Assembly (NCBI GenBank): GCA_965224195.1
Contig: OZ245040.1
Coordinates: forward strand, 864,001 to 928,000
Reading direction: 5' to 3'
DNA length: 64,000 bases
DNA from: Nitrosopumilus sp.
GTDB lineage: Archaea; Thermoproteota; Nitrososphaeria; Nitrososphaerales; Nitrosopumilaceae
Made by a program: the position numbers and the translations under genes. Below the pieces are notes generated by a model. The model had not been told where the DNA came from, ran no database searches, and worked only from the letters and a program-made list of their open reading frames with translations. This document shows positions 18,655 through 59,186 of the stretch, piece after piece. Position 1 is the stretch's first letter, and every line of letters begins with the position of its first letter.

Positions 18655-18820
18655 CTTTGATATCGCATGCTAACTGTATTCATACATCTGCGATAGTACA
18701 ACCAGTCTAACCTGTAAATGGTGCTTGTATCGTTCCTAGTTTTGGATGTATTCATACATCTGCGATAGTACAACCAGTCTAACAGGAGTCATAAGGAGTG
18801 TCCAATTGGGCACTCTTTCA
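18655..18820 (+). ncRNA. candidate structured ncRNA (interrupted by unit A)
   Basis: TATCGCA/TGCGATA stem enclosing TGTAT/ATACA; 3' hairpin GAGTGTCC/GGGCACTC then TTT; TATA-like TTTTAATA upstream; no ORF. Confidence 0.4.
18675..18783. repeat. unit A: 37-bp direct repeat, 35-bp insert
   Basis: TGTATTCATACATCTGCGATAGTACAACCAGTCTAAC at 18675-18711 and 18747-18783. Confidence 0.95.
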
Positions 18821-18827
18821 TTATAAT

Positions 18828-19157
18828 CTAGTCTGTCTTTTCAGGCACGATTTTTGCGTCTTGCATGGCTTCATCTTTTGGAGGATTTATGATTGCCTTT
18901 TTGATTAATGCTGCTTTGTCTTTTATTATCTGATTAAATTCTTTCATGTCCTCTAAACTTGGTGTTTGTTGTTGATTTTGATATGCTTGTAAAAATCCAG
19001 AATATACACATCCTGTAATGATTCCAAATGCTGTATCTGGAATTGATTTTATCTCGGGAATAAAATTTTCTGCTATTTGTTTATATGATTCTGATTCGCT
19101 AATGTAATAATCAATCAAACTATCTATGAAATCTTTGTTTTCTTTAGAAATTGCCAT
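18828..19157 (-). CDS. hypothetical protein
   Basis: ORF of about 109 aa. Confidence 0.75.
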   Translation of the reverse strand: MAISKENKDFIDSLIDYYISESESYKQIAENFIPEIKSIPDTAFGIITGCVYSGFLQAYQNQQQTPSLEDMKEFNQIIKDKAALIKKAIINPPKDEAMQDAKIVPEKTD

Positions 19158-19232
19158 CATTATTGTCTTTATTTCCTAGTTTATTTAATTGTCTTTGATT
19201 AATCGTTTATTTATTCATCAACTCTTTGCAAG

Positions 19233-19691
19233 ATGTTGTGGAAATTAGAATCAGATGAGGGGTATTTTCGAATCTATGATTCCAAAAAACTCATTGCAGG
19301 ATATTTTGATCCTGATTATGGGGATATTTTACCCAAAGAAAATTCTGAAGAAATCATTTTTTCCATGTTGAAAAATCATGATAAAATTTTAGGTGGAATA
19401 CTTATGGTTCCTCTTGTTAAATTTAGATTATTTGACACTGATTTGAATACTTCATTGACAAATGTAGAATCTCAAGTAAATCGTGTTAATGACCATTTAC
19501 AAAAATGGAAATTATTTATATCTAAAATGAAATATGATTGGCATTCTGTAAGAATTTCTCATACTGACCAAGACATGCTTACTATATCATTCCAAATGAA
19601 ATTTTCAAAACCTACGCCTCTTGAAAATAAAGCATTACTTGAAGAACTCTTCAATACATTGGAAAATTTACAAAAATCTGAATTACTTTAG
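19233..19691 (+). CDS. hypothetical protein
   Basis: 152-aa ORF. Confidence 0.7.
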   Translation: MLWKLESDEGYFRIYDSKKLIAGYFDPDYGDILPKENSEEIIFSMLKNHDKILGGILMVPLVKFRLFDTDLNTSLTNVESQVNRVNDHLQKWKLFISKMKYDWHSVRISHTDQDMLTISFQMKFSKPTPLENKALLEELFNTLENLQKSELL

Positions 19692-19704
19692 TATATAAAA
19701 AAAT

Positions 19705-20394
19705 CTAAGGTAAATGTTCTTTTTTCCATTTTTCAGCCTCGTTAAAGCAGTTAAACCACTCTACTTCAATCTCATCTGAATCAAATTCATTTATTTCGTT
19801 TTTAAATTCTGAATCACATTTATTTTTCATATTTTCTGAAATTTGAATTACTTTTTGTTTGAGTACTTTATCTGGGGGTGAAAATTTACCTGTTTCATCA
19901 AATTCTATTATCCCTGCTTTTGCTAATTGAAATTCAATCAATCCTAAATTTTCATACTCATATGCTTCTTGAATTTGAGTATCTGATCTCACTTTGGCTA
20001 ATTCATCTCCAGTTCTAATCCATTTGATATACTCTACATCACTTTTTAATTGAGTTTCAGATGAAATCTTGAATAATTCTACTGAACTTTCAAACAACTC
20101 TGGGGTGACCAAGTTTTCATATTTAGAAATAATATTTTCAAATTTTTCTACATGTTCATCGTAGTATTCTAGCAGTTCTTCTTTTGTAATGTCCCCTTCA
20201 TTCCATTGTGTCTTTTCAGAATAAAATTTTGTTTGTAATTCTGCTACGTCTTGTTGAATTTGAGCAAGCTCATTTCCAAACTGAAACCCTTTCTGCTTGG
20301 CTTGCTCTGATGAATAGTTATATGCAATAATTGCAATGATGATAATAACTCCTATTGTCGCAATGGTGATATTTTGAATTTTATTTTTTTTCAA
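19705..20394 (-). CDS. membrane-anchored hypothetical protein
   Basis: N-terminal TM then helical domain. Confidence 0.75.
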   Translation of the reverse strand: MKKNKIQNITIATIGVIIIIAIIAYNYSSEQAKQKGFQFGNELAQIQQDVAELQTKFYSEKTQWNEGDITKEELLEYYDEHVEKFENIISKYENLVTPELFESSVELFKISSETQLKSDVEYIKWIRTGDELAKVRSDTQIQEAYEYENLGLIEFQLAKAGIIEFDETGKFSPPDKVLKQKVIQISENMKNKCDSEFKNEINEFDSDEIEVEWFNCFNEAEKWKKEHLP

Positions 20395-20681
20395 AGATAA
20401 TCTATATAATTTCCTTCTTCGTCTAACTTTAATTCAATTGTAAATTCAGTACCGCTGATAAAAGAGTTATTTCGTGTAGTTCTGACCCGTCCAATGACCA
20501 ACTCATATGGCCAAATCTCTACTACGATTGCACCCACTTTAGCTGTTGGCGTCTCTGTAATCTCCATGTCTTCACGCTTTACTCCGTGTCTTTCGAGCAT
20601 GTGTATGGCGTGGTCTAATAATGGCTCTGGATTATTGTAATTTAATACCCAAACCTTTCCTTCATAATCAATTTTTTGCAA
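20391..20681 (-). CDS. hypothetical protein
   Basis: 96-aa ORF overlapping next start. Confidence 0.7.
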   Translation of the reverse strand: MQKIDYEGKVWVLNYNNPEPLLDHAIHMLERHGVKREDMEITETPTAKVGAIVVEIWPYELVIGRVRTTRNNSFISGTEFTIELKLDEEGNYIDYL

Positions 20682-20714
20682 TTTGAAACAATCCTAAATT
20701 TACTCATATAACAA

Positions 20715-20948
20715 TTATTCGGGAACTATGACATTTAGGGTCATTGTACTAGCAACTCTGGATAATTTTCTAATAGTTGCAATTACTTTTTCAAATTCAT
20801 CCTGATTACTAGTTTGAATTTCAGCAATCACATCATATGCACCAAACGTAAGATATGCATTTCCAATATCCTGCATTTGTTTTAATTCATCTACGATATA
20901 TTCTTCTGCTCCTAAGTCACAATTTAATAAAATGAATCCTTTGTGCAT
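20715..20948 (-). CDS. Lrp/AsnC ligand-binding domain protein
   Basis: TFGAYDVIAE...VASTMTL. Confidence 0.88.
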   Translation of the reverse strand: MHKGFILLNCDLGAEEYIVDELKQMQDIGNAYLTFGAYDVIAEIQTSNQDEFEKVIATIRKLSRVASTMTLNVIVPE

Positions 20949-20998
20949 TGGTTTATCTTAAATTAATTACGTAGTTCAAGTCTTTAAGTTTTACAGTG

Positions 20999-22318
20999 TT
21001 ACCATCTACTACGTCCGCCGTAGCTATTTCTGTTTCCATCTCTACCGCTGCTTCTTCTTCTACCGCTTCTGTCATCTCTTGGGTTTCCTCCCCCTCTAGA
21101 ACCTCCGTATCCTCCAGAACGACCTCCTCTAGAATAATTGGATCTGGATTGTCCTCCGTATCTTCTTGATGGAGTTTGTCTTTTTAGTGGGTCTGGAATT
21201 GAGATTTGAATTCCCATTTCTTTATTTAAATCTGTAATTGGAACTTTGATTTGGCGTTTGACTAGATTCCAATCTCCTACTGATGAATATGACACAAATG
21301 TGATTGCTCTTCCTTTTGCACCAGCTCTTGCAGTTCTTCCAATTCTATGAAAATATGCCATCTCTTGATTTGGTACATCATAATTTACTACTAGTTCTAC
21401 TCTAGGAACATCAATTCCTCTTGATGCTACGTCTGTTGCAACAAGAATATCTGCTTTACCACTTCTAAATTTGCCCATAGATTGTTCTCTTCTATGCTGT
21501 GACATGTCTCCTTCGATAGCTACTGCGTTGTATTTTTCTTGATGGAGGAATTTTGCAACGTCTCTGGTTCTATATTTTGTTGAACAGAATACGATAATTT
21601 GTCCTTTAATTGGTTTAACAAAATCAATTAGATACTTGAATTTGTCCCGGTCTTTAATTACCAAATATGATTGGTCTATTCCTTCTCCACTAAGATCATC
21701 TGCATCTAGTAAGAATTGTTTTGGATTGTTTAGATATTCTTCTGATAATCTTAAAATCTCAGTTGGCATTGTTGCTGAAAATAATGACATTACTCTATCT
21801 TCAGGAGCTAAATCTAAAATGAATGAAATATCATCTACAAATCCCATATCTAACATGGTATCTGCTTCATCAAGAACGATATGAGAAATATCTCTTAGTT
21901 CAATTGATCCTCTTTTGAGATGGTCAATTAGTCTACCTGGAGTAGCAACAACAATTTCTACACCTCTGTGTAGGGCATCTAATTGAATTCCCATTCCTTG
22001 TCCGCCGTAAACAGTTGCAGTTCTAATTCCTGTATGCTTTCCGAATTTTTTGATTTCATCGCTGATTTGCATAGCTAATTCTCTTGTTGGCGCCATGATC
22101 AAACCCTGAATTCCTTGTTTTGGTTGAATTTTCTCTAACATTGATAATGCAAATGCTGCAGTTTTCCCAGAACCTGTATGTGCTTGTCCTACGACATCTC
22201 TACCTGATAGTAAAACTGGAATCACTGCTTCTTGAATTGGAAATGCTTCTTCGTAACCTTGATCTGTAATTCCTTTCAGCACATCGTCGCTTAATCCTAA
22301 ATCTTGAAATTTTGTCAT
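20999..22318 (-). CDS. DEAD-box RNA helicase
   Basis: Q motif, TGSGKT, PTRELA, DEAD, SAT, HRIGRTAR; RG-rich tail. Confidence 0.95.
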   Translation of the reverse strand: MTKFQDLGLSDDVLKGITDQGYEEAFPIQEAVIPVLLSGRDVVGQAHTGSGKTAAFALSMLEKIQPKQGIQGLIMAPTRELAMQISDEIKKFGKHTGIRTATVYGGQGMGIQLDALHRGVEIVVATPGRLIDHLKRGSIELRDISHIVLDEADTMLDMGFVDDISFILDLAPEDRVMSLFSATMPTEILRLSEEYLNNPKQFLLDADDLSGEGIDQSYLVIKDRDKFKYLIDFVKPIKGQIIVFCSTKYRTRDVAKFLHQEKYNAVAIEGDMSQHRREQSMGKFRSGKADILVATDVASRGIDVPRVELVVNYDVPNQEMAYFHRIGRTARAGAKGRAITFVSYSSVGDWNLVKRQIKVPITDLNKEMGIQISIPDPLKRQTPSRRYGGQSRSNYSRGGRSGGYGGSRGGGNPRDDRSGRRRSSGRDGNRNSYGGRSRW

Positions 22319-22419
22319 TTTGTTTTTCTCTCTTTGGCAATGACGAAAAAGCTCATTGCCCACTCGTCATTATTCTGATGCTTGATGTCGATCGTGGTCT
22401 AATAAACGCTTGTTATTTT

Positions 22420-23298
22420 TTATGAGTTTAGTTGAGCATCAATTACTTTTTTGAAACTCTCAAATGGTTGGGCTCCTTTTAATTCAACAAATCCAATTTG
22501 ATCATTTCCTACAAAGAATCCTGGTGTTCCTGAAATTCCATAATTTCTTCCATCATTAAGATCATTTTGAATTTCTGGAATGTGTTTTCCACTATTGAGA
22601 CATAAATCAAATAATTCTTGATCTAATTGCATGTCTGATGCATATTGACTGAATAATGATAATGCATCACTAATTTCTAGTCTATTCCAATTATTTTGAT
22701 TTTCAAATAATGCATCATGCATTTCTCTAAACTTATTTTGATCATTTGCACATTCAGCTGCAACTGATGCTGGTAATGCATTTGGATGAATACTTTGAAT
22801 TGGGAAATCTCTAAAAACTAATTTCACTTTACCTTGTTCGATATATTCCTCTAATAGTGATGGTAATGTTTGAGTGTGGAATCTTGCACAAAATGGACAC
22901 TGAAAGTCTGAAAATTCTACAATGGTGATTGGGGCATCAGGATTTCCTATGATGGGATCATTGTCCATTGAAATTTTTACTGGTTCTGCTGCTTGTTTAG
23001 TAGGTAATTGGTTTTGTAATAATTTTAACTGATCAAAAGGAATGAAACCTTCGCCACTATCAGAATGTTTAGTAGGTAATTGGTTTTGTAATAATTTTAA
23101 CTCTAGTTTTGCTATTGCCTCATCAAGATCTACTGTTGAAATCTGGTTTGAATTTAGATTTGATGTGTATGATCCTGCAAAAAATGCTGTAATCCCGACT
23201 AGAATTATTATTCCTATGACCAATCCATTAAAAGTAGATTTTTTTACAGAAATCTTTTCATTATTATTTTGATTTATTTCTGAATCATCTAAACTCAT
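22420..23298 (-). CDS. DsbA family thioredoxin-fold protein (with 24-aa in-frame insertion)
   Basis: EFSDFQCPFC, GTPGF; N-terminal TM. Confidence 0.92.
   Translation of the reverse strand: MSLDDSEINQNNNEKISVKKSTFNGLVIGIIILVGITAFFAGSYTSNLNSNQISTVDLDEAIAKLELKLLQNQLPTKHSDSGEGFIPFDQLKLLQNQLPTKQAAEPVKISMDNDPIIGNPDAPITIVEFSDFQCPFCARFHTQTLPSLLEEYIEQGKVKLVFRDFPIQSIHPNALPASVAAECANDQNKFREMHDALFENQNNWNRLEISDALSLFSQYASDMQLDQELFDLCLNSGKHIPEIQNDLNDGRNYGISGTPGFFVGNDQIGFVELKGAQPFESFKKVIDAQLNS
22994..23102. repeat. unit B: 37-bp direct repeat, 35-bp insert
   Basis: TGTTTAGTAGGTAATTGGTTTTGTAATAATTTTAACT at 22994-23030 and 23066-23102. Confidence 0.95.
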
Positions 23299-23373
23299 TT
23301 CTATTAAATCTAAATCTAGTATACTTAATCGTATTGCCAAATATTGGATTAAGGATGTTATAGAAAAGAAAAG

Positions 23374-23447
23374 AGCCAATGACGGGATCTGAACCCATGA
23401 CCTATTGATTACAAATCAATTGCTCTACCAGGCTGAGCTACATTGGC
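23374..23447 (-). tRNA. tRNA-Thr(TGT)
   Basis: Cloverleaf GCCAATG...CATTGGC, anticodon arm ATTGA-TTTGTAA-TCAAT, T arm GGTTCAGATCC; no intron. Confidence 0.95.
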
Positions 23448-23570
23448 ACGAAGTTGAATGAATTTTTTGACGGTTTAAAGTGTTACCTGTGGTTTATTTG
23501 AAAATAATTTTGTTCTAAAATCATTAAATTCACCGTCAGTTTATAATAATGCCATATTTTGATACCTGTT

Positions 23571-23801
23571 ATGAGGTACATCGAACCTACCCGAGTTAAA
23601 TTTTTGACGATGATGTTTGTTGCAACTGGTATACTTGGTATAGTTATTGGACTATCTGGTTTTACTCCTCCTTCATTTAAGATGATGATCACATTCATGA
23701 GTGTGATAAACATTGGATTGGGCGCATTTTTTGCATTTATCTATTTGACTCAGACTCGAAAAGACCCTGATAAACGAAAGAAGAAAAGAAAAACTGATTA
23801 G
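23571..23801 (+). CDS. two-TM membrane protein with basic tail
   Basis: Hydrophobic pair then KRKKKRK. Confidence 0.7.
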   Translation: MRYIEPTRVKFLTMMFVATGILGIVIGLSGFTPPSFKMMITFMSVINIGLGAFFAFIYLTQTRKDPDKRKKKRKTD

Positions 23802-23872
23802 GTTTTTCTAACAATTTTAAAATTATTTCAAAGATTTAGGTTCAATTAAAGTATAAATAATAACTCTCTATC

Positions 23873-25585: not shown

Positions 25586-25726
25586 TGATTGTCTTTTTAA
25601 AATGAAATTATTAAATTTACTCTTTTTTTGTTCGTATTACTCATTATTGTAATATTTTTTTTATTTTTTAATAAGAATATGTTATCTGGTAACTAATATT
25701 CTCATTAATACAAATATCTGGATAGT

Positions 25727-26299: not shown

Positions 26300-26414
26300 T
26301 TTCAAACGTTTAAATCAGATTATCTGTGGTTTTTAATTGACATCGAATTCAAACCGTTCGGGGAACAAGCCGGCAGTCCATGCGTTGGACTGTCGGCCCC
26401 ATTTATTCTAAAAA

Positions 26415-29328: not shown

Positions 29329-29329
29329 G

Positions 29330-33839: not shown

Positions 33840-35020
33840 ATGAAATTACTAGTAATTCTTGGTTTAGTTTTGCTTAGTTTTGTTTTGATGAATTATTCTA
33901 ATGATTTGGTGTATGCTCAATTTTCAAATCAGAATACTCTCAATGTAATCTTTGAAAATAATGTTTCTCCTTCATATGAAATGCCTCTAGTTCCAGGACA
34001 AACATTCACTCTAACTCAAAATCACTCTTGGGTTAATGATGAAACAAGTAGGTATAATCTTGAATCATATACTCTTGATGGTGAGAAAGTAAAAATTTCT
34101 AGAACTGCATGAGGAGATTTCACATTGAATATCTCAACTGATTCATCTCATGAAGTAGTCCTTTCAGCTGTACAACAATATGCCCTAAGTGTAGAGGGAA
34201 CAAATGATTCCTCTTTTCTTCCATCTTCTCCAACTAATGATAACTGGTTTGATGCAGGCTCTGAAGTATCATCATGTAAGAATCGAATAACAATTTTTTT
34301 TGTTTTAAATGATAACTGGTTTGATGCAGGCTCTGAAGTATCAGTTAACGTGCAAAAAACAACAGAAATTGAACCAAACAAGGTAGGACAAGAGATAACT
34401 GGCTGGTCATTAGACAAGGCAGAGTTTTGGGAAATAGATGATAATGGAAATACATCATTTACCACTCCTCCTGTATCTCTAAATGAATATCATTAGGTGA
34501 TTTCTTTGTTGCATATCAATACAAACTCAATGTAATTTCTGAATCTGGTGAAACTACTGGAAGTGGTTGGTATGAGCAGGGAATTACTGTCCCAATTGGA
34601 ATTGATGCAGGTGGAGATGGATTGGTGTTAAATTCTGTATCTGGATGGGATGGTGCAGATGTGACATATGATGGAAATATTGTCCAAGTGTTCATTGATG
34701 GTTCCGTAACTGTTTCAGCTAAAGTTGAAAAAAATTATTCTCTAATAATTGGAATGATTGTTATTCCAATATTGGTTATTGGTGTTGTTGGGTATAGAAA
34801 ATTCAAGAATAGACCTCCTATAGTAATTGAGAAGCCTGTTGAGCGAATTGTAGAAAAAGTCATAGAAAGAGTAGAGGCTCCGGAGAAAAAATATGAAGAT
34901 GGGTATGATAACAAACTCTCAGAATATTTATCAGAACAAATTCAATCAAAACTAGATGAGATGCTTTCATCTAAAATTATCTCTGAAACAAAATATTCAA
35001 AGATTAAAGAAACTCTATGA
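33840..35020 (+). pseudogene. secreted membrane-anchored protein, fragmented
   Basis: Signal peptide to C-terminal TM split by stops/frameshift across three ORFs. Confidence 0.75.
34236..34343. repeat. unit C: 36-bp direct repeat, 36-bp insert
   Basis: AATGATAACTGGTTTGATGCAGGCTCTGAAGTATCA at 34236-34271 and 34308-34343. Confidence 0.95.
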
Positions 35021-42507: not shown

Positions 42508-43185
42508 CTATCCCAAAATACATGAATTAGATTCAGAATCAAAAACAGTGCCAGCACCACATTTTGAATCAATTTCATCTGAACCTTGTGTGTTCACACT
42601 ACCAATAACACATGCATTTGTTTCAGGATCAAGCACAGTACCAGCACCACATTTTGAATCAAATTCACCATAGAAAATATCTTCATCTTCAATTACAGAT
42701 GTAGAAATTGTATCTGATGAGGAATCTAGCGCATTATCAAAATACCCTAGAGAATATCCAGATCCAAATAGTATCAAGATTAAAACAGGAACTCCAATAA
42801 TAATTGGAATTTTTAGTGGAATTGATTTTGAGAAACTATTAAATTTTGATTCAGGAATAGGTTGTGGATTTGCACCTATTTCAAAAATAGAAGTTCCACA
42901 AAGCATACAAAAGTTAGCACCTAACGGACCTTTTTTTCCACATTTCCAACAATGAATAGTTTCTTCATTTTCAGGTTCGTTTTCAAAAACAATCTCATCA
43001 GTTTGTGTATCAGTAGTGTGTTTAGCCAAATATTTTTGTCGTAAGTTTTTTAGATAATTTTCATCAGTAATCCAGATTTTTTTATTTTGAATAAATGTCT
43101 GTTTGATATGTTCTAATCGATATGGATCACCAACATCCAATTTCAATAAAGTATTAACTTCATCTACAATATCTGTGGAATCCAT
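42508..43185 (-). CDS. Zn-ribbon membrane protein with CGAGT repeats
   Basis: CWKCG...FCMLCG, TM, two DSKCGAGTV repeats. Confidence 0.8.
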   Translation of the reverse strand: MDSTDIVDEVNTLLKLDVGDPYRLEHIKQTFIQNKKIWITDENYLKNLRQKYLAKHTTDTQTDEIVFENEPENEETIHCWKCGKKGPLGANFCMLCGTSIFEIGANPQPIPESKFNSFSKSIPLKIPIIIGVPVLILILFGSGYSLGYFDNALDSSSDTISTSVIEDEDIFYGEFDSKCGAGTVLDPETNACVIGSVNTQGSDEIDSKCGAGTVFDSESNSCILG

Positions 43186-43257
43186 ATATTTCCTATTATG
43201 TCACGTGTCATTAAAAACTAATTGGATAAGAAGAATGAATTTCAGACAGATTTGAGG

Positions 43258-43363
43258 GTAGAAATGTCCAAGATGAATAGACCCAAATCCAGAAATCTTT
43301 TAGTTTATGGAAAACCTGGAACAGGCAAGTAGAAATGTCCAAGATGAATAGACCCAAATCCAG
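43258..43363. repeat. unit D: 35-bp direct repeat, 36-bp insert
   Basis: GTAGAAATGTCCAAGATGAATAGACCCAAATCCAG at 43258-43292 and 43329-43363. Confidence 0.95.
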
Positions 43364-44985: not shown

Positions 44986-45438
44986 ATGGATAATGTAACA
45001 ATCCGAGACGTATGCGACAAGGATGTTCCTATACTTCTTGGATTATTGTATGATCTAGGGCGTCCAAAACCCCAAAAAGATTCTGATGTTGAAATATTTC
45101 GTAAATTAGTTACAAAATATGTGAAAGATTCAGACAAAACAATTCTTGTTGCAGAACTTGATGACATGAAAATTGTTGGCATGGTAAGTATTGTGTATTT
45201 GTCAAGATTAAACCAATCAACTTTGGAGATGTATGTTCCCGAATTAGTTGTTCTTCAAAAACATCAAAATCATGGAATTGGAAAAAAACTAATCCATTCT
45301 TGTATTACTCTTGCAAAAGAGAAAAAATGTCACAGAATTAGATTAGAATCTGGTAATCGACGAAAAGATTCTCATGAATTCTACAACCATTTGGGATTTG
45401 AACAATATGCTCTTTCATTTACATTGAATTTAGATTAA
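44986..45438 (+). CDS. GNAT family N-acetyltransferase
   Basis: LVV...QNHGIGKKL motif A; FYNHLGF. Confidence 0.9.
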   Translation: MDNVTIRDVCDKDVPILLGLLYDLGRPKPQKDSDVEIFRKLVTKYVKDSDKTILVAELDDMKIVGMVSIVYLSRLNQSTLEMYVPELVVLQKHQNHGIGKKLIHSCITLAKEKKCHRIRLESGNRRKDSHEFYNHLGFEQYALSFTLNLD

Positions 45439-45452
45439 CCGACATTTCTCAA

Positions 45453-45635
45453 TTAAGAATCTGAATTTGGAACATAGTCTTTACATGAACATTCACTACA
45501 TACTATGTTTGATTTCAATTTCCCCGAAGGCATTGAAGTTCCTGCTAGGAAATCCCCATCGCCATGACGATCTAACAAAAGTTGATGATCTTCTTTTGAA
45601 TGTGAACAATTTTTGCAATTATCATCTGTTATCAT
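45453..45635 (-). CDS. small Cys/His metal-binding protein
   Basis: CKNCSHSKEDH...CSECSCKDY. Confidence 0.7.
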   Translation of the reverse strand: MITDDNCKNCSHSKEDHQLLLDRHGDGDFLAGTSMPSGKLKSNIVCSECSCKDYVPNSDS

Positions 45636-46093
45636 GATTTATTTTGTATTTGTAAACTCCTATTTGTGGGTTTCACTAAACAATTCTCACAAGGGGAATT
45701 GTTTGATTGGTTCAAATTTTTACATATTCAACACTGAGATGGATTAATTATTTCAAAAATAAAACTAAAGATCCCATTACAATCAATATGCTTATGAAAA
45801 TTAACAAATTTCTAATGGGATTCCTAACAACATATCTTTCATCATGTTTTCTTAGGTGAAATCAAAGACTTCGCCCCTTTCAATTCTTTCCTTGAACTTC
45901 TCTTTGGATTTTTCATGGGCTATGTCATTTTCACTTTGTAGGGTTTTTTTTGACATGGATAATAATGACAGTTATTGAATTTATTGTAGCTAGTTGGAAT
46001 TCCTAAAACTTGTAAAGAAATTAACAAAAAAATTGAATACGTGTTCAATATGCTTTCCAATTACTTTTTGTTTTATGTTTGGTAATAGTAGTT

Positions 46094-46189
46094 ATGACTA
46101 GAACAGAAAGAAGACGAAATACTGCCCATCCTACACGGGATGGGAAACACAATCCAGTATGTGTTGATCCTAACTGTGAGGATTGTTAA
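46094..46189 (+). CDS. 31-aa Cys-tail microprotein
   Basis: MTRTERRRNTAHPTRDGKHNPVCVDPNCEDC. Confidence 0.5.
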   Translation: MTRTERRRNTAHPTRDGKHNPVCVDPNCEDC

Positions 46190-46197
46190 TTTGTAGG

Positions 46198-46226
46198 TGG
46201 TGGACCAAATGGGATTGAAGCCCTGG
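46198..46226 (-). other. degenerate tRNA 3'-end (Ala-like), att remnant
   Basis: Minus strand CCAGGGCTTCAATCCCATTTGGTCCACCA = decayed T arm plus acceptor end with CCA; no 5' half. Confidence 0.6.
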
Positions 46227-47484
46227 CAGTCGTGGGTTTATGATACATTCATCAGACGACTTAATGGTTGTTATAAAGGATGTCCTGTAGTGGTATAAGT
46301 AATAATACCATATGACAAGAATATCACTAAAGCGATGCAAACTTTTTGAGAACCTCAACACTAAGGGACTCCTCATGGTATTTTACCCCGTCTTTGTTTT
46401 CACTCTTTGTAATTATTACCCTGGGGCCGAGATCTTCTATCATCCTAACTATCTTCTTTTGTAGGACCATTACCAGGGAGAGTAGGGTATAATATTGTCA
46501 GTTATGATGTACTGGTGTCTTTACTGTTGCCAGTATGAGTATGGGAGAGGATATTTACAATGAGTGTTGAGGGTTTGTCAAAAAAACATCTTATGCAACT
46601 ACGAGAAGCTGGGACCAACTTTTATCCAACAAATAAGGATGGGAGAAAAGAGGGGATTTACAAAGATAAAGTGGTTGCCATAAAAAGAGAGGAGCAAATA
46701 TTTAGGACACTACAATCAACTGAGGAATTTGAGCATGCAATATCACAGCCGAATTTTTGTGCAGTGTTTACTACTAACTCTCTTGCATTTGTAATTGATG
46801 ATGATACTGAAGAAAATATCAAGGTGGCCAGAGACCACACCATATGCACGTACAGAAAAAAGATTGATCGCACAAGCTTCCACTATTTTGTAATTGCAAA
46901 AACCACGAGGATTTTGAAAAGCTTGCAGTAAAAGACGAGTATATCGAGCACCTTGAGGTGTTTACATATCATAAAATGCGCGTACTTGACGTCCAAGGCC
47001 ATTTTAGGCTTGACAACAACAAATCAGATCCCAAAGCATCATGGTTCCTAAAGGGTGGAGACTACCAAAGACTGCGGATATCCCCTCATTACATATGATA
47101 TGGCAAAGAACATACCAGAGTGGGGGTAAGCCTGATTCGTCTGGGGATGGCAAAAGCGTATCCCTGAAAAAATTTCAAGGAGTAGATATTAACAAGCCAC
47201 CAACACCACACATGACAAATACCAGATTTAACAGCATTGCAATAAAGTGTCTAAGTTATGAAGGCTGGAGTGATGAGAAGACATTAAAACACCTAGAGAT
47301 GCTAAATACAAAAAGAGCATATCCTCATACCAACGATCTAAAACAATATATCACCAATGCAAAAAAATACCTGGAGGATTTTAAAGATGATTTTAAGGAT
47401 GGCATCTACCCCATAACACTTGATAACCTAAATGATATAACAAACCCAAAATACGCAGACAAGCTTGTAACTGTTAGGGGAGTA

Positions 47485-47590
47485 GTATCAAGTAATATGA
47501 TATCATACAGCGTTCCATTTGTAAACAAAGCTGAGCTATTGAAGAAAGGTCTAATGGTATCAAGTAATATGATACCATACAGCGTTCCAT
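47485..47590. repeat. unit E: 34-36-bp direct repeat (1-2 mismatches), 36-38-bp insert
   Basis: GTATCAAGTAATATGATA(T/C)CATACAGCGTTCCAT at 47485-47518 and 47557-47590. Confidence 0.9.
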
Positions 47591-48526
47591 ACAAACTAAA
47601 AGTCAAATGCATCAATGAAGATGAGGGTCACATAACACATGACAATGAAGAAGACAGAACAAAGATTGTGACAATCAGAAAAAAAAACAATGCCTTTATT
47701 TGTTGATGCCAGTTATAGTGGAAAAAATAAAATATTAGGTCCAATATCGAAGATACCTTTTGATTCTAAATGTACCACTTTCTATAAGGAAAAAGAGCAT
47801 CTAACAATAAACAGGATGAAGATAAGGTCCATAATGCACTCACTAATCATTGATGGTAAAGAATTCCTAGATGATGATGAAAACAAATACTCCTCATATG
47901 ACATTTATGTACTGCAAAAGGATGCTGGCAACAATCTCACTGCTGGAAAAGAGATGGAGGTGAATGGATATGTTATTGCAGATCCCAAAAACGCCAAAAT
48001 CACAATCATGGCAGTACACGTAAGGGAACTAAATGAGAATAACTATAACATAGAAAAGATAAAGGAATTGCAGGTGCTTCACGCAGGCAAGTCACTACAA
48101 GAGATAGTGGACTGGTTTGCATCAGAGTTCACAAAATACACAAAGATAGTGAAACGCAAAGATCTCATATTAGGTGTCATCCTCAACATGTTTAGCTCAC
48201 TAGGTTTTGAGTTTGAGTATAAGATTGTACGTGGCTGGGTAAATATAATAGTAATTGGCGACTCTACTACGGGAAAATCTGAGATAGTGCGACTTGTGAT
48301 AAAACTGGCTAAGTCTGGGCAGATAGTAAGTGGTGAGATGGCAACTATCGCAGGAATTGCGGGTGCATCAATTCAGGCAACTGGTGGTCAATGGTTTACT
48401 GATTATGGACTATTACCATTACAGGACCGCAAGGCCTTATGGATAGATGGTGCACACAAGATACCAAAACATGAGATGGACAAGCTAGCAGAAGCTGAGA
48501 GGAGTGGAAAAATAGAGATAAACAAG

Positions 48527-48638
48527 GCATCAAAGGGCTCTGCATGGGCAAGAACCAGACAGCTGAGAGAGAAAGAATTGCAGCTGCCATTGCAGCTAAC
48601 TAGCATCAAAGGGCTCTGCATGGGCAAGAACCAGACAG
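48527..48638. repeat. unit F: 36-bp direct repeat, 40-bp insert
   Basis: GCATCAAAGGGCTCTGCATGGGCAAGAACCAGACAG at 48527-48562 and 48603-48638. Confidence 0.95.
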
Positions 48639-48672
48639 GGTAAAATTATGAACCCCCTTAATGATGAGGGGC

Positions 48673-48768
48673 GTGACACTACCACCATGAACAACTTTAT
48701 TTGAAATGGTGGGACACAACAACCAACGCTGCGATAGTGTGACACTACCACCATGAACAACTTTATTT
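48673..48768. repeat. unit G: 30-bp direct repeat, 36-bp insert
   Basis: GTGACACTACCACCATGAACAACTTTATTT at 48673-48702 and 48739-48768. Confidence 0.93.
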
Positions 48769-49160
48769 ATCCTATACAGGCACTTACAAACTCGTTCCAA
48801 TTACAAACAATTGCCCGCTTTGACTTGGTATTATTTGTGCTAGATGATGAGGCCACAAAGTATATTGTCAGTGAAAACCTAGACAAGCACGGTAAAACTG
48901 ATAATTTTGACTTGTCGTATATGGGTCAATAGTAAATATTAAATGCATATTATTTTATACTTTACTAGTAAAATAATAGGGGGTCAGTAAAATAATAAAG
49001 GTTTAGTAGAATAATTAATTATACATTGCAAGCACGTACTAGTATATCTTGATTTTAACATTGTAGGGACATATATCAAAACTACAAGTTAAAGTCAAAC
49101 TATAAAATTATAAAATATAAAACCATAAACTATAACATTGAGAATCACTAATCAAATATC

Positions 49161-49268
49161 ATGTCATATTTCTACAAGAGATGCCCAAAGTGCAATGAGA
49201 TATGTGCTGGTACCATAGAACTGGTAGGGCATTTCCAAGAAAACCCAAGTCATAGGCCAAAGCCATAA
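49161..49268 (+). CDS. C2H2-type zinc finger microprotein
   Basis: CPKC-x12-HFQENPSH, 35 aa. Confidence 0.55.
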   Translation: MSYFYKRCPKCNEICAGTIELVGHFQENPSHRPKP

Positions 49269-49327
49269 TTAAAACTATGATTAAACTTGATCAATAGTAA
49301 AATCAAAAACTGTTATGTACTATTAAC

Positions 49328-51306: not shown

Positions 51307-51360
51307 AACTGTTAATGTTGCCCAGAAAACCCTTTATTTCTTTGTACCTTTGTACCTTTA

Positions 51361-52116: not shown

Positions 52117-52117
52117 A

Positions 52118-52834: not shown

Positions 52835-52967
52835 ATAAAAAGATATGGGGATATTTTATTGGCATACCAGATAGTGTAATATCAAAATTATCTCTAGTTC
52901 TTTTGATAAGAGATCCCCAGAAAAAAGACAATTCATTTAATAGTGGTGTTATTAGCGTGATCATAAA

Positions 52968-54242: not shown

Positions 54243-54294
54243 TATCATACTGTTTTATTAAAAGTATTTATTTGTAATAATTACCGATCATACT

Positions 54295-54495
54295 ATGCGG
54301 CTGCCTAGTATGATGACAATGTTTTTGGTATTGTTTTTTGGTCCAATTGCAGGTATTGTTTTTAGATATAAATACAATAAAACCAATGACAGACAGATGG
54401 CCACATTTTTGTGGTATGTATCTTGGTTGTCTTTATTGGTTGGTGTAATATGTGCGGGATTTTATTATCCAGAATATTTTGATATGCCGTATTAG
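54295..54495 (+). CDS. small two-TM protein
   Basis: 66-aa hydrophobic ORF. Confidence 0.6.
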   Translation: MRLPSMMTMFLVLFFGPIAGIVFRYKYNKTNDRQMATFLWYVSWLSLLVGVICAGFYYPEYFDMPY

Positions 54496-54510
54496 ATGGT
54501 AATGGTTATT

Positions 54511-54648
54511 TTACAATGCTAGTCCAACATATGACCAGCTAGCATCCCCACAATTATCACACATTAAACTATCCAAACACTTTATGTTACATTGCTCCTC
54601 TGTAATTGTAATCTTTTTGCCACAACTGCCGCACTTAATTTTCCACAT
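54511..54648 (-). CDS. Zn-ribbon microprotein (45 aa)
   Basis: CGSCG...CDNCG. Confidence 0.55.
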   Translation of the reverse strand: MWKIKCGSCGKKITITEEQCNIKCLDSLMCDNCGDASWSYVGLAL

Positions 54649-54682
54649 AATAGATAATAGGATCACTATAGTATTATATCAT

Positions 54683-54943
54683 ATGGTATCCCCTACAACA
54701 CTCCAGGACAAATACATATACTTTGAGATTTCCCTAAATGAAAGCTGGAAAGAGATTAAAAATGATGATACAAAGTACAAGGCCTATCATGTTATAATTA
54801 CTGCAAGCAAGACTCCAACTATAACCCTCATGGATAAAAAAGGAAAAACAGCAAAACTGTGTTTTGATATGGGTGCAACTATCCTGTTAGAGGGTCCAGA
54901 TACCATATGGTATGATATAGATAATTTGATAGAGTGCTCCTAA
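54683..54943 (+). CDS. hypothetical protein
   Basis: ORF from internal ATG (MVSPTT), divergent from Zn-ribbon ORF. Confidence 0.5.
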   Translation: MVSPTTLQDKYIYFEISLNESWKEIKNDDTKYKAYHVIITASKTPTITLMDKKGKTAKLCFDMGATILLEGPDTIWYDIDNLIECS

Positions 54944-55114
54944 CTATACCCATAACTGATGAAGGCTTGTACAAAAAAATAAGCAATTCAATTTAGTATT
55001 GTACATTATAAGCGATCTAATATTATTATAATAAAATACTCATATTATATTAATGTTATATAATACTTGCGATCTGAAGATTAGATATATCAAAGTATAT
55101 CATACTATAATATT

Positions 55115-56172
55115 ATGAAACCTCATCTTTTGGCAGCAACAGTAGTCTTTTCATAATACTGCTTGTACCTGGCGGAGCATTTGCAAACCAGCTGCCAGGA
55201 GATGGCATTTTATCAATACTAAAACAATATGCAAGTGGTGTTCCACTAGATAACATACAGTGCAAAAACCCAGAACATTTTGTAGCGTTGCGTGATAATG
55301 GCAAGCCAATATGCGCCACAGAAAGAACACTTGAGCATCTGGGGCTGGACATGACCTATTACAATCCCAAACCAATTTTAAAAAATACTAAACTAATCAT
55401 TAATCCTACCAACCTTACAGGTATAATCCCACAAGACATTACTTTTGATTATGTTTTAAAAATGCCTCCTGATGATCCTGATGCATTTGCCCAAAGAATG
55501 GCTGAATTTTTTGACGATGAAATTATATCTTCAAGTCATGAAAGAAAAGAGCCAAGCCATCATGGACTGGATAAATACACTACAAAAAGAGGTTGGATTA
55601 AGATTGATAAGGAGTCTCTTTATGGTTTTCCTTTCACATATACTTTCTTTGGACCAGGCAGAATTCCACCTGCACAAGCAGAATCTGTTACAACGTCATT
55701 ACTAGATGAATTGGGAATAAAATTAGATGGAACAGAATATTTTGATAAAGGGGGCATGGCTTCAAATTATGATTATAAATATATGCAAACAATTGGAGAT
55801 TTTATAATCCCAACCAACGTGATAATTACTGATTTTGATCCAGGTTACACTTTTATCCATATTGGAAGTTGGAACTATAATTTATCAGAGATGGATTTTT
55901 TTGACATAAAACAAGCAAAACAAAACGGCAGAGAACATATTCTCAAATATCCAGAACTAACTGGACCTAACTGTGATGTTTTTTTTAGCACTATACCTAC
56001 CGGTATTGAAGATGAAAAGGTTTTGTACATTCTACATGAAAGACCCGTCTATAAGGTGTTTAGTGGCGCATGCAGTATACCATATATGACGGGACATTCT
56101 CAGATGTTTGACACGTTTGTTGATGCAATAACTGGTGAGCCTTTATACGTGCTAAGTAAGTGGATGTTCTAA
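55115..56172 (+). pseudogene. secreted protein with frameshift in signal peptide
   Basis: MKPHLLAATVVFS* then shifted frame continues through LKQYASGVP...C...KPIC motif into the 294-aa ORF. Confidence 0.7.
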
Positions 56173-56181
56173 TGTCTGTTG

Positions 56182-57179
56182 TTACTCTGTCAAACAAATC
56201 ATTTCTAACTAATGATTAATTTCATTTCCCTCAAACACTTGCAAATAAATTATACAGCTCGACTTTTAATTCCAATTCCTTTATCATGTATTTTCTTTTG
56301 TGAGCCATGACATACTCACCAAACATCCTTTTGAATGTAGAAAAGACACACTCTACAATCCATCTATTCCCATAGCTAACGCTGCGCTTCCACAAATCCA
56401 AATTATACATTTGAGCCAAAACTGATTTCTTTCGGGGATAACATTTTGTTTTGATAGATGATGTTTTTCTAACTTTAACTGCAGGCAGTGCATTTGTGTT
56501 GTGGTACAGATATGAAAAGTTGTTTTCTGAATCATATGCGCCATCAGCTAGAGCCTTGATTACATTTCCTTTGTACAATGCTTGTTGTACTAGTTCTGGC
56601 AGATGTGCAGGCATCATGGGATGAATCATCAATTATTTTCAGTGAAACTATTTTCTTTGATTTCACATCTGCACCAACATGGATTTTCAAGAATCCTTTT
56701 CTCATGTGCCATTTCTGTCGCATCCATTCACCTCTGTTTGCAACCTTGATTCCTGTACTGTCAATTGCTAAAATGATTTCATTGTTATCTCCAAGGAATT
56801 ATCAATTTTGATGTCAAGCTTGTTTATTCTCTTGTGGACTGGTGTAAAATCAGGAACTGATGGAATTCTATTACAATATGCACGAATCATTCCTTTCTGT
56901 TTGTCTGAATGGTAATCCAAAATAGATTCTGGCATAACCTGGCAATTTCATAAACGAGTCAGGATAGCCTGGACTTTCTACCTCTTTTGTTGTGATTCAT
57001 GACCTCTAGTTCTTTATGCCAGTTCTCAATAACATCAAATGACATGATGATCTTCACCTCTTCGGACTAGTTTTTCATTGTATTGACTCCAGTTAACCAT
57101 GAAAATAATCAGAATGTGAGATCCAAAGCTATTGTGGTGTAATGATATTGATCAGATTGTTATTTGTTCGACAAAGTAA
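56182..57179 (-). mobile_element. degenerate IS5-family element
   Basis: TIRs TTACTCTGTCAAACAAAT / ATTTGTTCGACAAAGTAA; frameshifted transposase from ATG 57100 (NWSQYNEKLVRRG...DSTG...ADGAYD...RWIVECVFS). Confidence 0.85.
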
Positions 57180-57420
57180 ATCTAAATCCTTCACTATTCA
57201 TATTTTTTTCCTAAACCGTTCTGTTTGGGTTTTTTGCACTTACAAGATGCAGTCTATCTTGTTCCATCTTCTCCTCGAATTGGTTTTTAATTTTTTCATC
57301 TGCTTCTCCCCATTCAGGAAGTTCTGATTTTGAAATCAACTCTAAAGACATATGCGATGGATATGTTTTTGCCTTTAATTTATTTTTCTATTACAAGGTT
57401 TTGTTAAATTGCGTAACATA

Positions 57421-57684
57421 TCAACAGATGCATCCCGTGCTATGATCAACTCGTCTCAAAACCATACAATACATCAAAAGTGATGCAATATTAACAAATG
57501 CCAGATAATTTTCTGCTACTCTTTCATATCTGATTGTTGTTCTTTTGAATCCATTTTTGAGCCAAGCAAAGAATCTCTCCACAACATGACGAATTTTATT
57601 GTATTTTTTGTATGATTTATTTTTTGTTGCTTTATTGTTATTTTTTCTAAATGGAATGCATGGATTGATATTTCTATTTTTCAA
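57421..57684 (-). pseudogene. IS5-family transposase C-terminal remnant
   Basis: RHVVERFFAWLK...IRYER. Confidence 0.8.
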
Positions 57685-57716
57685 AATTCAAACATAATGC
57701 ACAAAGCCTTCTAAAG

Positions 57717-58154
57717 ATGGGAAAAGATGTAGCAAAGAAGGTTCCCCGTGTCTTTGTAACAGATGGCTTATCAGTTTACAATGATGCCTTCAAAAAGGAA
57801 TATGCACCAAAAAATTTCTTACACAAGCCATCAAAACACGTTAGTGACATACATTTTAAGAACCAGCTAGCAAACAACAACATACAGGAAAGACTAAACG
57901 GTGAGTTTCGTGACCGTGAAAAGGTCTTTAGATGTCTTAAGAAAGTTGACAGTCCAGCAATTACAGGAATCAAATTACATCACAATTACATAAAACCACA
58001 CATGAGTTTAGATGAGCATACACCAGCTTTTAGAGCTGAAATTGAGATTAAGGGTGATAACAAGTGGTTGACAATCATTCAAAATGCCTCAAAAACTCCC
58101 GACACTTGACACGAAGAAAATTTTGATCTCATCTCCAGATTACTTGACAGAACC
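57717..58154 (+). mobile_element. IS6-family 3' remnant
   Basis: VTDGL, NNNIQERLN, HNYIKPH; IR TACTTGACAGAACC at 58141-58154. Confidence 0.8.
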
Positions 58155-58188
58155 TAGATAAGTAAGGCATACCAGTGTTATTCAATAT

Positions 58189-59013
58189 ATGAAAAAGACA
58201 ATAATATTTGCAATAATATTTACAATAATATTTACAATAATAGCTGGGATCTCAGTTTTGGTATTGGGACCTTTTGGAACATCTCATGTAGATACCATAG
58301 AGATGACAGATGCAGAAAAGACATGGCTTGGGACAAGACAAACTATAAGGGTGGCATATGACCCTGCTTGGTATCCATTTGAGTACATGGACAAAGAGTC
58401 CGGCAAGACAGGGGGACTTTCAGGCAAGTACTTTGCAGAGATAGAGTCATCTACAGGAGCAGACCTTGTTGCAATAGAGATATCTGACTGGGCAGATGCA
58501 TTAGAGTCAGTTAAAGACGGCAGGGCAGACATATTGCTCATGGTAGCTGACACTGAGCAGAGAAGAGAGTTTTTGGGATTTACAGAACCACACAGCAGAA
58601 TATCAGTGGACATGATCACAGTTGGAACGCAGACACTTGATGTAAAAGAGCTAGCAGAGCTCAGAGTTGCCACCGTAAAGGATTATGCAGTAGAGTCATG
58701 GCTTGATCAGAACAAGCCAGAGGTAAGGTATACATCATTTGAAAATGCCGCTGCTGCACTTGAGGCCCTGGAGGCAAAGAGCATGGATGTCTTTCTTGAA
58801 AATGAGCATGTGGCATCAATTACAGCTGCAAAGGCAGGCATAAGTGGAGTGTTTAATGCAGGCCCATCAGGATACGAGTATGTTCTGTCCATAGGCTTTG
58901 CAAAAGAGTCCGGTGAGCTTGGCACCATACTGCAAAAGGCCATTGATGCAATTCCGCAAGACCAAAAAGCACAGATGCTCAAAGACGTACTGGCAGAGAA
59001 CGACGGCATCTGA
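58189..59013 (+). CDS. membrane-anchored family-3 solute-binding protein (BvgS/EvgS periplasmic-domain-like)
   Basis: TDAEKTWL...IRVAYDPAWYPFEY, FTEP; no permease adjacent. Confidence 0.82.
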   Translation: MKKTIIFAIIFTIIFTIIAGISVLVLGPFGTSHVDTIEMTDAEKTWLGTRQTIRVAYDPAWYPFEYMDKESGKTGGLSGKYFAEIESSTGADLVAIEISDWADALESVKDGRADILLMVADTEQRREFLGFTEPHSRISVDMITVGTQTLDVKELAELRVATVKDYAVESWLDQNKPEVRYTSFENAAAALEALEAKSMDVFLENEHVASITAAKAGISGVFNAGPSGYEYVLSIGFAKESGELGTILQKAIDAIPQDQKAQMLKDVLAENDGI

Positions 59014-59060
59014 GCGCAGAGACAACTACTGCAGAGATTTGTATGAAAGGCAACTTGTTG

Positions 59061-59186
59061 CAGGTTTGATGCCACACATACAACTGATAAACTATCCATT
59101 TTCAATTTAACACCGTATCGCACAATAACTGACAAGGCAACAGGTTTGATGCCACACATACAACTGATAAACTATCCATTTTCAAT
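59061..59186. repeat. unit H: 46-bp direct repeat, 34-bp insert
   Basis: CAGGTTTGATGCCACACATACAACTGATAAACTATCCATTTTCAAT at 59061-59106 and 59141-59186. Confidence 0.93.

Follow-up and report, generated by a model that had tools for sequence, protein, structure and literature searches.

Solitary spacer-sized insertions in a Nitrosopumilus genome: probable natural off-target integration by the organism's own Cas1-Cas2

What process sets short, unrelated pieces of DNA between two copies of the host sequence at their site of entry? The window, the whole 64-kb stretch of Nitrosopumilus DNA analysed here, raises this question at eight places. A direct-repeat search of the window (seed 10, copies no more than 120 nt apart) yields 14 families, and among them are all eight of the dispersed duplication-insert units that a sequence-only reading had claimed, at the same positions:

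18675-18783: unit A, copies at 18675-18711 and 18747-18783, duplication 37 nt, insert 35 nt; between short frames (non-coding or short ORF)
22994-23102: unit B, duplication 37 nt, insert 35 nt; in a DsbA/thioredoxin-like gene, 22420-23379, minus strand
34236-34343: unit C, duplication 36 nt, insert 36 nt; in a 123-aa ORF, 34125-34496, plus strand
43258-43363: unit D, duplication 35 nt, insert 36 nt, period 71; in a short frame or intergenic stretch
47485-47590: unit E, duplication 34 nt (1 mismatch), insert 38 nt; in a 221-aa ORF, 47041-47706, plus strand, strain-specific element
48527-48638: unit F, duplication 36 nt, insert 40 nt, period 76; near the end of an MCM-like ORF, 47690-48643
48673-48768: unit G, duplication 30 nt, insert 36 nt, period 66; same dimensions as the 30-nt-repeat array described below
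59061-59186: unit H, duplication 46 nt (over-long), insert 34 nt, period 80; between ORFs 58707-59159 and 59172-60179, minus strand
47690-48932, plus strand: MCM-like helicase gene carrying units F and G, in a small strain-specific element at about 45.4-49.3 kb of the window; the adjoining ORF carries E

The other families (D1, D3, D10 and D12-D14) were rejected as units, being imperfect, short-period or protein-internal repeats. In units A to H, direct duplications of 30-46 nt, perfect save for the mismatch in E, flank unrelated inserts of 34-40 nt, and the duplicated sequence is a different one each time, as had been noted. The inserts bear no likeness to their own flanks, their sole match within the window being a 13-nt chance match of insert G. 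The GT start ascribed to the duplicated segments is found in A, D, E and G and, after 1 nt, in B; over all units of the genome, G at +1 and T at +2 are likewise enriched.

A scan of the 2.07-Mb genome returned 45 candidates, of which 4 were left out as protein-internal repeats, leaving 41 solitary units. This amounts to about one per 50 kb, so that the density of one per 8 kb read from the window does not carry over to the genome. Chance does not produce such structures: two genomes simulated under a second-order Markov model contain no candidate pairs, against 745 in the real one. The period (repeat plus insert), a measure free of boundary ambiguity, lies between 70 and 76 nt in 35 of the 41 units. 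The duplication measures 35-39 nt in 31 units and 30 nt in two; the eight that fall outside these classes (25, 32, 34 and 42-54 nt) we read as reflecting an imprecise choice of the second site. Apparent insert lengths range from 29 to 40 nt and are mostly 34-38.

Far from being broad, these distributions are sharply peaked, and they peak at the repeat and spacer lengths of CRISPR arrays resident in the same genome. There are three large arrays, each adjoining its own Cas1-Cas2-Cas4 genes:

Array 1: type I-G, 36-nt repeat, period mode 72-73, with a Cas4g/Cas1g fusion and Cas2
Array 2: type I-B, 30-nt repeat, period mode 66-67, with Cas1b, Cas2 and Cas4
Array 3: I-B-like operon, 37-nt repeat, period mode 72-73, with Cas1, Cas2 and Cas4

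They hold 90, 68 and 132 repeats, all identical within their own array, and their spacers have modes of 35-37 nt throughout. The 36-37-nt and 30-nt classes of duplication mirror the resident repeats of 36, 37 and 30 nt, and the inserts match the resident spacers; unit G, at 30/36, also has the dimensions of an array. Cas1 matches in the genome number only these three (E values of 1e-72 or lower), all CRISPR-linked, with Cas2 and Cas4 or a Cas4 fusion adjoining each. None lies in the window, which upholds, for Cas1, the earlier remark that the window has no cas gene.

Comparison with relatives indicates that A to D arose by insertion. The site of unit A is empty in four of the five relatives searched (G015, G012, G019 and G017), where the match falls into two BLAST pieces with an overlap of 28-38 nt; that of unit B is empty, by alignment, in at least six relatives, and that of unit C in two of five (G012 and G019). 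At unit D, alignment shows both duplication and insert to be missing from three of five relatives (G015, G012 and G019) in a region that has diverged. Five relatives have no orthologous DNA for E to H; all four testable sites were found empty. On this sequence comparison, A to D are insertions into single-copy sites.

The inserts themselves come from afar. Eight of the 41 are full-length, sharp-ended copies of distant self DNA, five identical to their source and three differing by 1-4 nt. Insert B has an exact copy elsewhere in the genome, at C1:1253098-1253132, and insert E has two (C1:1093513-1093550 and C1:1101298-1101335); insert C agrees with C1:208000-207965 in 35 of its 36 nt, and insert D with C1:195966-195931 in 34 of 36. 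Self copies are wholly missing from the 287 canonical spacers (Fisher p 3e-8). Our searches returned no source for the other 33 inserts, and no protospacers for the spacers of the canonical arrays; the GC content of these 33 (41.9%) is close to that of canonical spacers (40.4-42.3%) and well above that of genomic 36-mers (33.5%; p 4.6e-7). The inserts derive from distant self DNA or from a pool of spacer-like GC, and not from adjacent sequence. The shared PAM that the first reading had suggested looking for did not appear: the eight self source sites have no common flanking motif, with one end unclear and three systems possibly mixed. No PAM is visible although all three modules have Cas4, which is a point against Cas1-Cas2 as the agent.

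The sites of insertion are not random. Among the 82 unit ends, C occupies position -2 in 30 and G position +1 in 28 (p about 1e-6 each), giving the junction consensus C(-2)T(-1)/G(+1)T(+2), where the slash marks the junction. An oriented end model reaches 6.28 bits, whereas 60 random sets give 3.47 +/- 0.22, and when a PWM trained here is applied to 20 units of four relatives, they score higher than random sites do (p 1.2e-7). The a-priori test for likeness to RYTTCAAT, with which the resident repeats end on their 3' side, is borderline (19 of 41 versus 33% expected, p 0.055). Off-target sites of Pyrococcus furiosus Cas1-Cas2 show the motif CCCT/GTT, with G, then C, preferred at the attacked base (PMC6698737).

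Units of the same kind occur in relatives that carry CRISPR. In 400-kb samples scanned as was the main genome, and from genomes that are kin rather than independent samples, we counted seven units in G014 and two each in G092 and G087. In G055, which has a single Cas1 match (type I-G), nine spacers lie at seven loci, including two 2-spacer neo-arrays, whose pseudo-repeat sites have already taken up a second spacer. The Cas1-free controls are few. One of like GC (G063) has no units in its 400-kb sample; two of 53-54% GC (G018 and G002) gave three rows and one row, which we read as probable protein-repeat fragments. The two units of G092 measure 37/35, yet its only Cas1 adjoins an array with repeats of 30 nt, and the genome lacks repeats of the I-G type. 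Casposase-like Cas1 matches are also found in the genus; they are weaker and of the 400-aa class.

The anatomy of the units, the match in lengths, the empty sites, the insert sources, the bias in site and the co-occurrence with CRISPR-Cas in relatives are all directly observed. The initial proposal of a Cas1-type integrase that writes measured fragments with repeat-length target duplications is supported by the modules, the peaked lengths, the empty sites and the insert sources, and we consider it very probable that the units represent natural, genome-wide ectopic spacer integrations by the organism's own Cas1-Cas2, a catalytic role that we infer from sequence. On this reading, the complex measures off a prespacer of about 35-37 nt, taken from foreign DNA or, about one time in five, from the host chromosome itself. 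The two 3'-OH ends of the prespacer then attack ordinary chromosomal DNA, one on each strand, at points separated by the length of a repeat: 36-37 nt with the type I-G or I-B-like modules and 30 nt with the third, though which module acted at each site is assigned by inference from length. Repair of the gaps duplicates the host segment between the attacks, leaving the order pseudo-repeat, spacer, pseudo-repeat. The choice of site probably reflects an intrinsic preference of the integrase for a junction resembling that between leader and repeat, as in the C(-2)T(-1)/G(+1)T(+2) consensus. Because the pseudo-repeats are unique host sequences, they are presumably not processed into crRNA, which would explain why self-derived spacers survive in units and not in real arrays.

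Two familiar identities were tried and rejected. The units do not form a canonical CRISPR array, each having its own unique two-copy repeat of host gene sequence, far from cas genes. Nor are they an IS element, transposon or casposon, as the inserts are 29-40 nt long, all different and without shared ends, and the duplications span 25-54 nt.

Some other insertion process, be it the work of an integrase or recombinase other than Cas1, of a tiny mobile element, or of template switching in replication or repair, could be imagined, given that catalysis by Cas1-Cas2 is a proposal, that no PAM was found and that the units of G092 occur without a system of matching repeat length. We think it very unlikely. 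The inserts have no common sequence, terminal inverted repeats or coding capacity, each being a different self or foreign-like fragment, and the known kinds that we compared duplicate less of the target, casposons 14-15 bp and IS elements 2-15 bp. Slippage imports no distant DNA. Moreover, the 36-37-nt and 30-nt size classes mirror the resident arrays, and the junction bias mirrors the published off-target sites of Cas1-Cas2.

That the units are artefacts of assembly, amplification or sequencing, and absent from the DNA of the cells, has a minimal chance of being true. The relatives of this genome are metagenome-assembled, short-read contigs break inside the repeats and do not span the units, and one contig of depth 2 (X4) joins across unit D as though the site were empty. 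However, the duplications match the organism's CRISPR repeat lengths and the spacer-length inserts are precise excerpts of loci that lie hundreds of kb distant; we know of no artefact that yields such a combination. Contigs from the runs of two studies break at the same places within the repeat copies of E and F, as they should do if the reads contain the repeated 31-mers, and the same type of unit, with the same junction bias, recurs in four other separate genomes.

The notion that the units descend from canonical arrays now decayed, or came in with mobile elements as mini-arrays or solitary repeats, might draw on the location of E, F, G and H in strain-specific DNA and on the fact that viruses and plasmids can carry mini-arrays, but it is scarcely credible when each pseudo-repeat is a different host sequence without likeness to any of the three canonical repeats, and relatives have the target in single copy at the sites orthologous to A to D.

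The evidence indicates that the spacer-inserting enzymes misfired many times across the chromosome, breaking or lengthening genes. Units B, C and E are each read through in frame and add 24 codons, in agreement with the clean frames predicted upon their deletion. Unit F shifts the frame of the MCM-like ORF, which has a P-loop domain (PF00493, E 7.4e-16), near its end. Deletion of F and G had been said to restore this frame; removal of both does lengthen it from 317 to 366 aa, and removal of either alone does not. Unit H causes a frameshift where ORF 58707-59159 gives way to ORF 59172-60179. Genome-wide, we count 16 likely broken frames and seven in-frame insertions of 24 or 25 aa. Mobile DNA is among the targets, with three units within 1.3 kb of the MCM replicon gene cluster and one in an IS5 transposase; units also lie in cas-gene remnants.

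One might go further and view ectopic integration in Nitrosopumilus not as rare noise but as a sustained, genus-wide evolutionary force that gives birth to CRISPR loci, adds segments of 24-25 residues to proteins and preferentially disables mobile DNA without an interference step. We hold this broader idea to be unlikely; if true, it would make the adaptation machinery a mutagen with selectable outcomes. On the main reading, these Nitrosopumilus genomes offer a natural record of dozens of dated off-target events per genome, with identifiable target rules. The units give an unselected view of what adaptation captures (self DNA makes up about 20%, whereas none of the 287 spacers in the selected arrays is self) and a measurable cost of adaptation (about 16 broken frames in one genome), and the 2-spacer neo-arrays may represent the first steps of array birth. 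The origin of CRISPR loci, the cost of adaptation and the sorting of self from non-self before and after integration thereby become testable in an abundant marine archaeon.

These properties invite comparison with known systems. In 2018, Nivala, Shipman and Church reportedly described (Nat Microbiol) off-target integration and neo-CRISPR arrays for the type I-E system of E. coli with over-expressed Cas1-Cas2. There too, as citing papers describe it, Cas1-Cas2 places a spacer outside the array, duplicates a repeat-length segment of ordinary DNA and can seed new arrays. In contrast to that laboratory over-expression, the Nitrosopumilus events have become fixed in archaea in the wild and number about 41 per genome; the host has three different modules (I-G and I-B-type), the consequences for its genes can be seen, and a relative has 2-spacer neo-arrays. 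Among works citing the E. coli study, a preprint speaks of "circumstantial evidence" for off-target integration in two other species, and a paper calls its natural weight "unclear". A literature search covering the main texts of papers found no report of such a scale in wild genomes. In vitro, Cas1-Cas2 of P. furiosus attacks the two strands in pairs of points spaced by the length of a repeat, with a preference for G and a similar junction; that, however, is a test-tube reaction on a plasmid with 30-bp spacing, whereas ours are natural chromosomal products, mostly of 36-37 nt (PMC6698737). Ectopic acquisition at internal array repeats, reported for Streptococcus, also has the integrase use a site other than the leader-proximal repeat, but the target there is still a genuine CRISPR repeat and not unrelated host sequences chromosome-wide. 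Casposons, including the Nitrosopumilus family 1 casposase, share a Cas1-family integrase that makes target-site duplications. They span kilobases, are bounded by terminal inverted repeats and make short duplications, unlike the 29-40-nt inserts described here, in a genome whose only three Cas1 matches are CRISPR-linked. Off-target integration and the neo-CRISPR mechanism are already known from E. coli and Pyrococcus; what Nitrosopumilus adds is not a new mechanism but a natural, large-scale case.

Scattered along this Nitrosopumilus genome are solitary units, in which host DNA is directly duplicated, as a pseudo-repeat, around an unrelated, spacer-sized insert outside the CRISPR arrays. These units very probably record spacers that the resident Cas1-Cas2 complexes integrated ectopically. 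When the window was scanned for direct repeats, all eight loci picked out by the sequence-only reading, here units A to H, were recovered among 14 families; the other six are imperfect or short-period. The repeat and insert lengths of the units, in nucleotides, are:

Unit A: repeat 37, insert 35
Unit B: repeat 37, insert 35
Unit C: repeat 36, insert 36
Unit D: repeat 35, insert 36
Unit E: repeat 34, insert 38; one mismatch between copies
Unit F: repeat 36, insert 40
Unit G: repeat 30, insert 36
Unit H: repeat 46, insert 34

No two of these repeats are alike, and a search for likeness of the inserts to their flanks or to other window sequence found none. A 66-nt direct repeat at window 42512-42667 (83% identity, period 90, period being repeat plus insert) was rejected as a protein-internal repeat; the gene around it (42508-43185, minus strand) encodes a zinc-ribbon protein.

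If the units arose by insertion, as had been proposed, related strains should retain the unoccupied sites, and units A to D are indeed empty in relatives. In BLAST comparisons of the unit regions with Nitrosopumilus relatives, matching pieces that abut and overlap on the subject by the length of the repeat denote a single-copy, insert-free site. The site of unit B is empty by this measure in G015 (90-91% identity), G017, G019, G012, G003 and other relatives' genomes, with overlaps of 34-37 nt, and can be followed base by base in an alignment (A2). That of unit A is empty in four of five relatives searched. For unit C it is empty in two of five, and the other three are without one or both of its flanks. 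At unit D, duplication and insert are both absent from G015, G012 and G019, and the intergenic stretch has diverged. Units E, F, G and H had no counterpart DNA in the five relatives searched. Units E to G lie within a small element carrying an MCM-like helicase gene (PF00493). This stretch (window 45400-49300) is strain-specific, with no match in five relatives, and may be a small integrated element; the three units are packed into 1.3 kb of it, the densest cluster of the genome.

Read evidence was taken from Logan assembled contigs of public sequencing runs. Contigs of runs from two studies end within the first repeat copy and restart within the second; runs X1 and X2 do so at units D, E and F, run X3 at E and F. 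A graph built with k=31 is expected to break there if the reads contain the repeated words; the contigs, broken inside the repeat copies, neither span the units nor exclude them. One contig of a fourth run (X4, depth 2) joins across unit D as an empty site, skipping 71 nt (window 43257-43329) with 35 letters common to both sides; it may reflect an empty-site variant carried by a minority of the population sampled, or an artefact of the graph at low depth. At unit H, X3 has a 101-nt skip with unknown letters.

The whole genome (2.07 Mb, 33.6% GC) was scanned for repeats with a period of 60-92 nt and inserts no shorter than 25 nt, shorter internal periods being excluded. Four of the 45 isolated candidates obtained (at 906532, 963056, 1074068 and 1074101 of C1, the contig that holds the window at 864001-928000) were removed by eye as imperfect protein-internal repeats, leaving 41 units. 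Their dimensions are sharply peaked: the duplication measures 36, 37 or 38 nt in 26/41, 35-39 nt in 31/41 and 30 nt in two, while the period, which is unaffected by boundary placement, is 70-76 nt in 35. The two copies are identical in 29 units and differ by one mismatch in 10 and by two mismatches in two. Chance hardly produces such pairs: the detection rule that yields 745 candidate pairs in the real genome yields none in either of two artificial genomes generated by a second-order Markov chain. The spread along the chromosome is uneven, with no unit in the 480 kb of C1:200000-680000 versus 14 between 680 and 930 kb.

These size classes are those of the resident CRISPR arrays, a comparison that the sequence-only reading had proposed as a check. 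Three arrays are present, each made of identical repeats and each adjoined by a Cas1 gene (cas genes typed with NCBIfam models):

Array 1: 90 repeats of 36 nt, spacer mode 36-37 nt, period mode 72-73; type I-G operon with a Cas4g/Cas1g fusion, Cas2, Csb2, Cas3g and Csb1
Array 2: 68 repeats of 30 nt, spacer mode 36-37 nt, period mode 66-67; module of Cas4, Cas1b (type I-B) and Cas2
Array 3: 132 repeats of 37 nt, spacer mode 35-36 nt, period mode 72-73; type I-B-like operon with Cas7/Csh2, Cas5b, Cas3, Cas1, Cas2 and Cas4

The unit classes of 36-38 nt (period 72-74) and 30 nt (period 66-69) thus share the dimensions of the arrays with 36- or 37-nt and 30-nt repeats, respectively. Unit G (30/36, period 66) fits array 2, and the other units fit array 1 or array 3, two arrays that size cannot separate. 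A second cas cluster (C1:1228140-1236307 of this genome, G000), with homologs of the type I-G csb2 and cas3g genes, is devoid of Cas1. Elsewhere, two adjoining fragments at G000:C1:1159074-1159325 match the two extremities of the type I-G cas operon, near C1:723002-723084 and 716594-716698, at 90-95% identity; judged by this similarity, they look like the remnant of a second operon copy whose middle was deleted. The unit at C1:1159163 sits inside these fragments.

The choice of sites is not random. When both ends of the 41 targets were pooled and read inward (82 ends), the flanking base at -2 was C in 30 ends versus 13.8 expected, the first duplicated base (+1) was G in 28, and T was favoured at -1 and +2. 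An orientation-resolved two-end model reached 6.28 bits versus 3.47 ± 0.22 (maximum 4.14) for 60 sets of random sites given the same treatment. A weight matrix derived from this genome also recognizes the 20 units of four other genomes, which score 1.50 versus -4.08 for their random sites (p = 1.2e-7). These natural junctions have the same character as the off-target junctions described, in the part of the account drawn on here, for Pyrococcus furiosus, where Cas1-Cas2 alone carries out full-site integration at non-CRISPR sites with G or C one repeat-length apart, the junction motif being CCCT|GTT and the preferred attacked base G (PMC6698737). Whether the pseudo-repeats resemble the resident repeats at their 3' end was assessed with the a-priori motif RYTTCAAT at either end and offsets of -3 to +3; the outcome was borderline (at least 6/8 matches in 19/41 units versus 33% expected, p = 0.055), and no such likeness is claimed.

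The inserts fall into two groups. Eight of the 41 are full-length copies of other loci in the same genome, hundreds of kilobases distant, with identity ending exactly at the insert boundaries. The source is exact for three (the units at C1:690211 and C1:911485, the latter being E, and unit B, whose 35-nt insert equals C1:1253098-1253132); it differs by 1-2 nt for C, D and the units at 173581 and 1892823, and by 4 nt, near one end, for that at 1277616. The 38-nt insert of unit E matches two self loci. Outside the arrays, no canonical spacer (0/287) has a match in the genome, against which the self-derived fraction (8/41) stands out (Fisher p = 3e-8). Mean GC is 41.9% for the 33 non-self inserts; canonical spacers cannot be told from them (40.4-42.3%, p = 0.59), and 36-mers taken at random from the genome lie far lower (33.5%, p = 4.6e-7). 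On this composition the inserts look as if taken from the foreign pool that supplies the real spacers. No insert matches any of the 287 canonical spacers over more than 13 nt, and exact-match searches of IMG/VR, made for three non-self inserts out of 33 (those of units A, G and H), gave no hit. A search of phage records with window 18000-60000 returned only a tRNA-like match, due to a tRNA-Thr (TGT) gene (window 23373-23447, minus strand) that adjoins the start of the DsbA-like gene carrying unit B. A shared PAM, which the sequence-only reading had proposed to look for, was sought beside the self protospacers of the eight self-derived inserts, and no motif common to them was seen. A weak leaning to 5' T and 3' A is present at the ends of inserts and canonical spacers alike, too slight for use.

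Relatives served as controls. A sample of 81 genomes of the genus showed Cas1 in 32, some matches being weaker and casposase-like. Seven genomes were scanned over 400 kb each in the same way; rows whose repeats were 18-23 nt long or whose periods were odd were left uncounted, as were those of G018 and G002. G055, with one Cas1 match (type I-G) and 131 I-G repeats, gave 14 rows, nine of which have a period of 72-73 and fall at seven loci. Two of these loci (198815-199031 and 325797-326015 of the joined 400-kb stretch L026-L045 of G055:C1) have three pseudo-repeat copies and two different spacers, and are two-spacer neo-arrays in which one non-CRISPR site was struck twice; at both loci, one of the outer copies carries a single-base difference. 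G014, with five Cas1 matches spanning all three Cas1 classes, gave seven rows, all with periods of 72-74, and G087 (array period 70-72) two clean 35/34 units. The Cas1-free G063 (34% GC) gave no rows in 400 kb. G018 and G002, also Cas1-free (53-54% GC), gave three and one rows, which lie among or resemble protein tandem repeats of period 72-75 and are less probably units. A genome with the 30-nt system alone was predicted to carry 30/36 units, and G092 defeated this prediction. Its sole Cas1 adjoins an array whose 30-nt repeat is identical to that of array 2, and no I-G-type repeats were found in the whole genome; its two clean units (stretch L086-L105, G092:C1:500001-900000) are 37/35 and may date from a lost system.

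Once a unit (insert plus one copy) is removed in silico, 23 of the 41 sites lie within open frames of at least 100 codons. With the units in place, as in the actual sequence, thirteen of these frames are shifted, three have a stop inside the unit, and seven read through with 24 or 25 additional residues. The clean frames noted earlier at B, C and E belong to the last group, B lying in a DsbA-like protein. Periods modulo 3 are distributed 13/15/13 over the 41 units, so in-frame events are not in excess. Among the broken genes are those of an SDR oxidoreductase and an IS5-family transposase, and the csb2 homolog of the second, Cas1-less, I-G-like cas cluster, which is split by a 30/39 unit at C1:1228750. 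Restoration of the MCM-like frame held for units F and G removed together, which extends it from 317 to 366 aa; removal of either alone gives no extension.

Off-target integration as such is already known. Published accounts, as far as drawn on here, describe the same reaction in E. coli over-expressing Cas1-Cas2 and in Pyrococcus biochemistry (PMC6698737), and a preprint citing the E. coli work mentions "circumstantial evidence" in two other species. Full-text literature, main articles only, yielded no account at such scale for Nitrosopumilus or any other wild genome. The novelty lies in how much of it is recorded in nature, with about 41 events in a single genome and similar ones in four relatives, along with the rules of target choice, a share of self DNA (about 20%) seen before selection, the damage to genes and the two-spacer neo-arrays.
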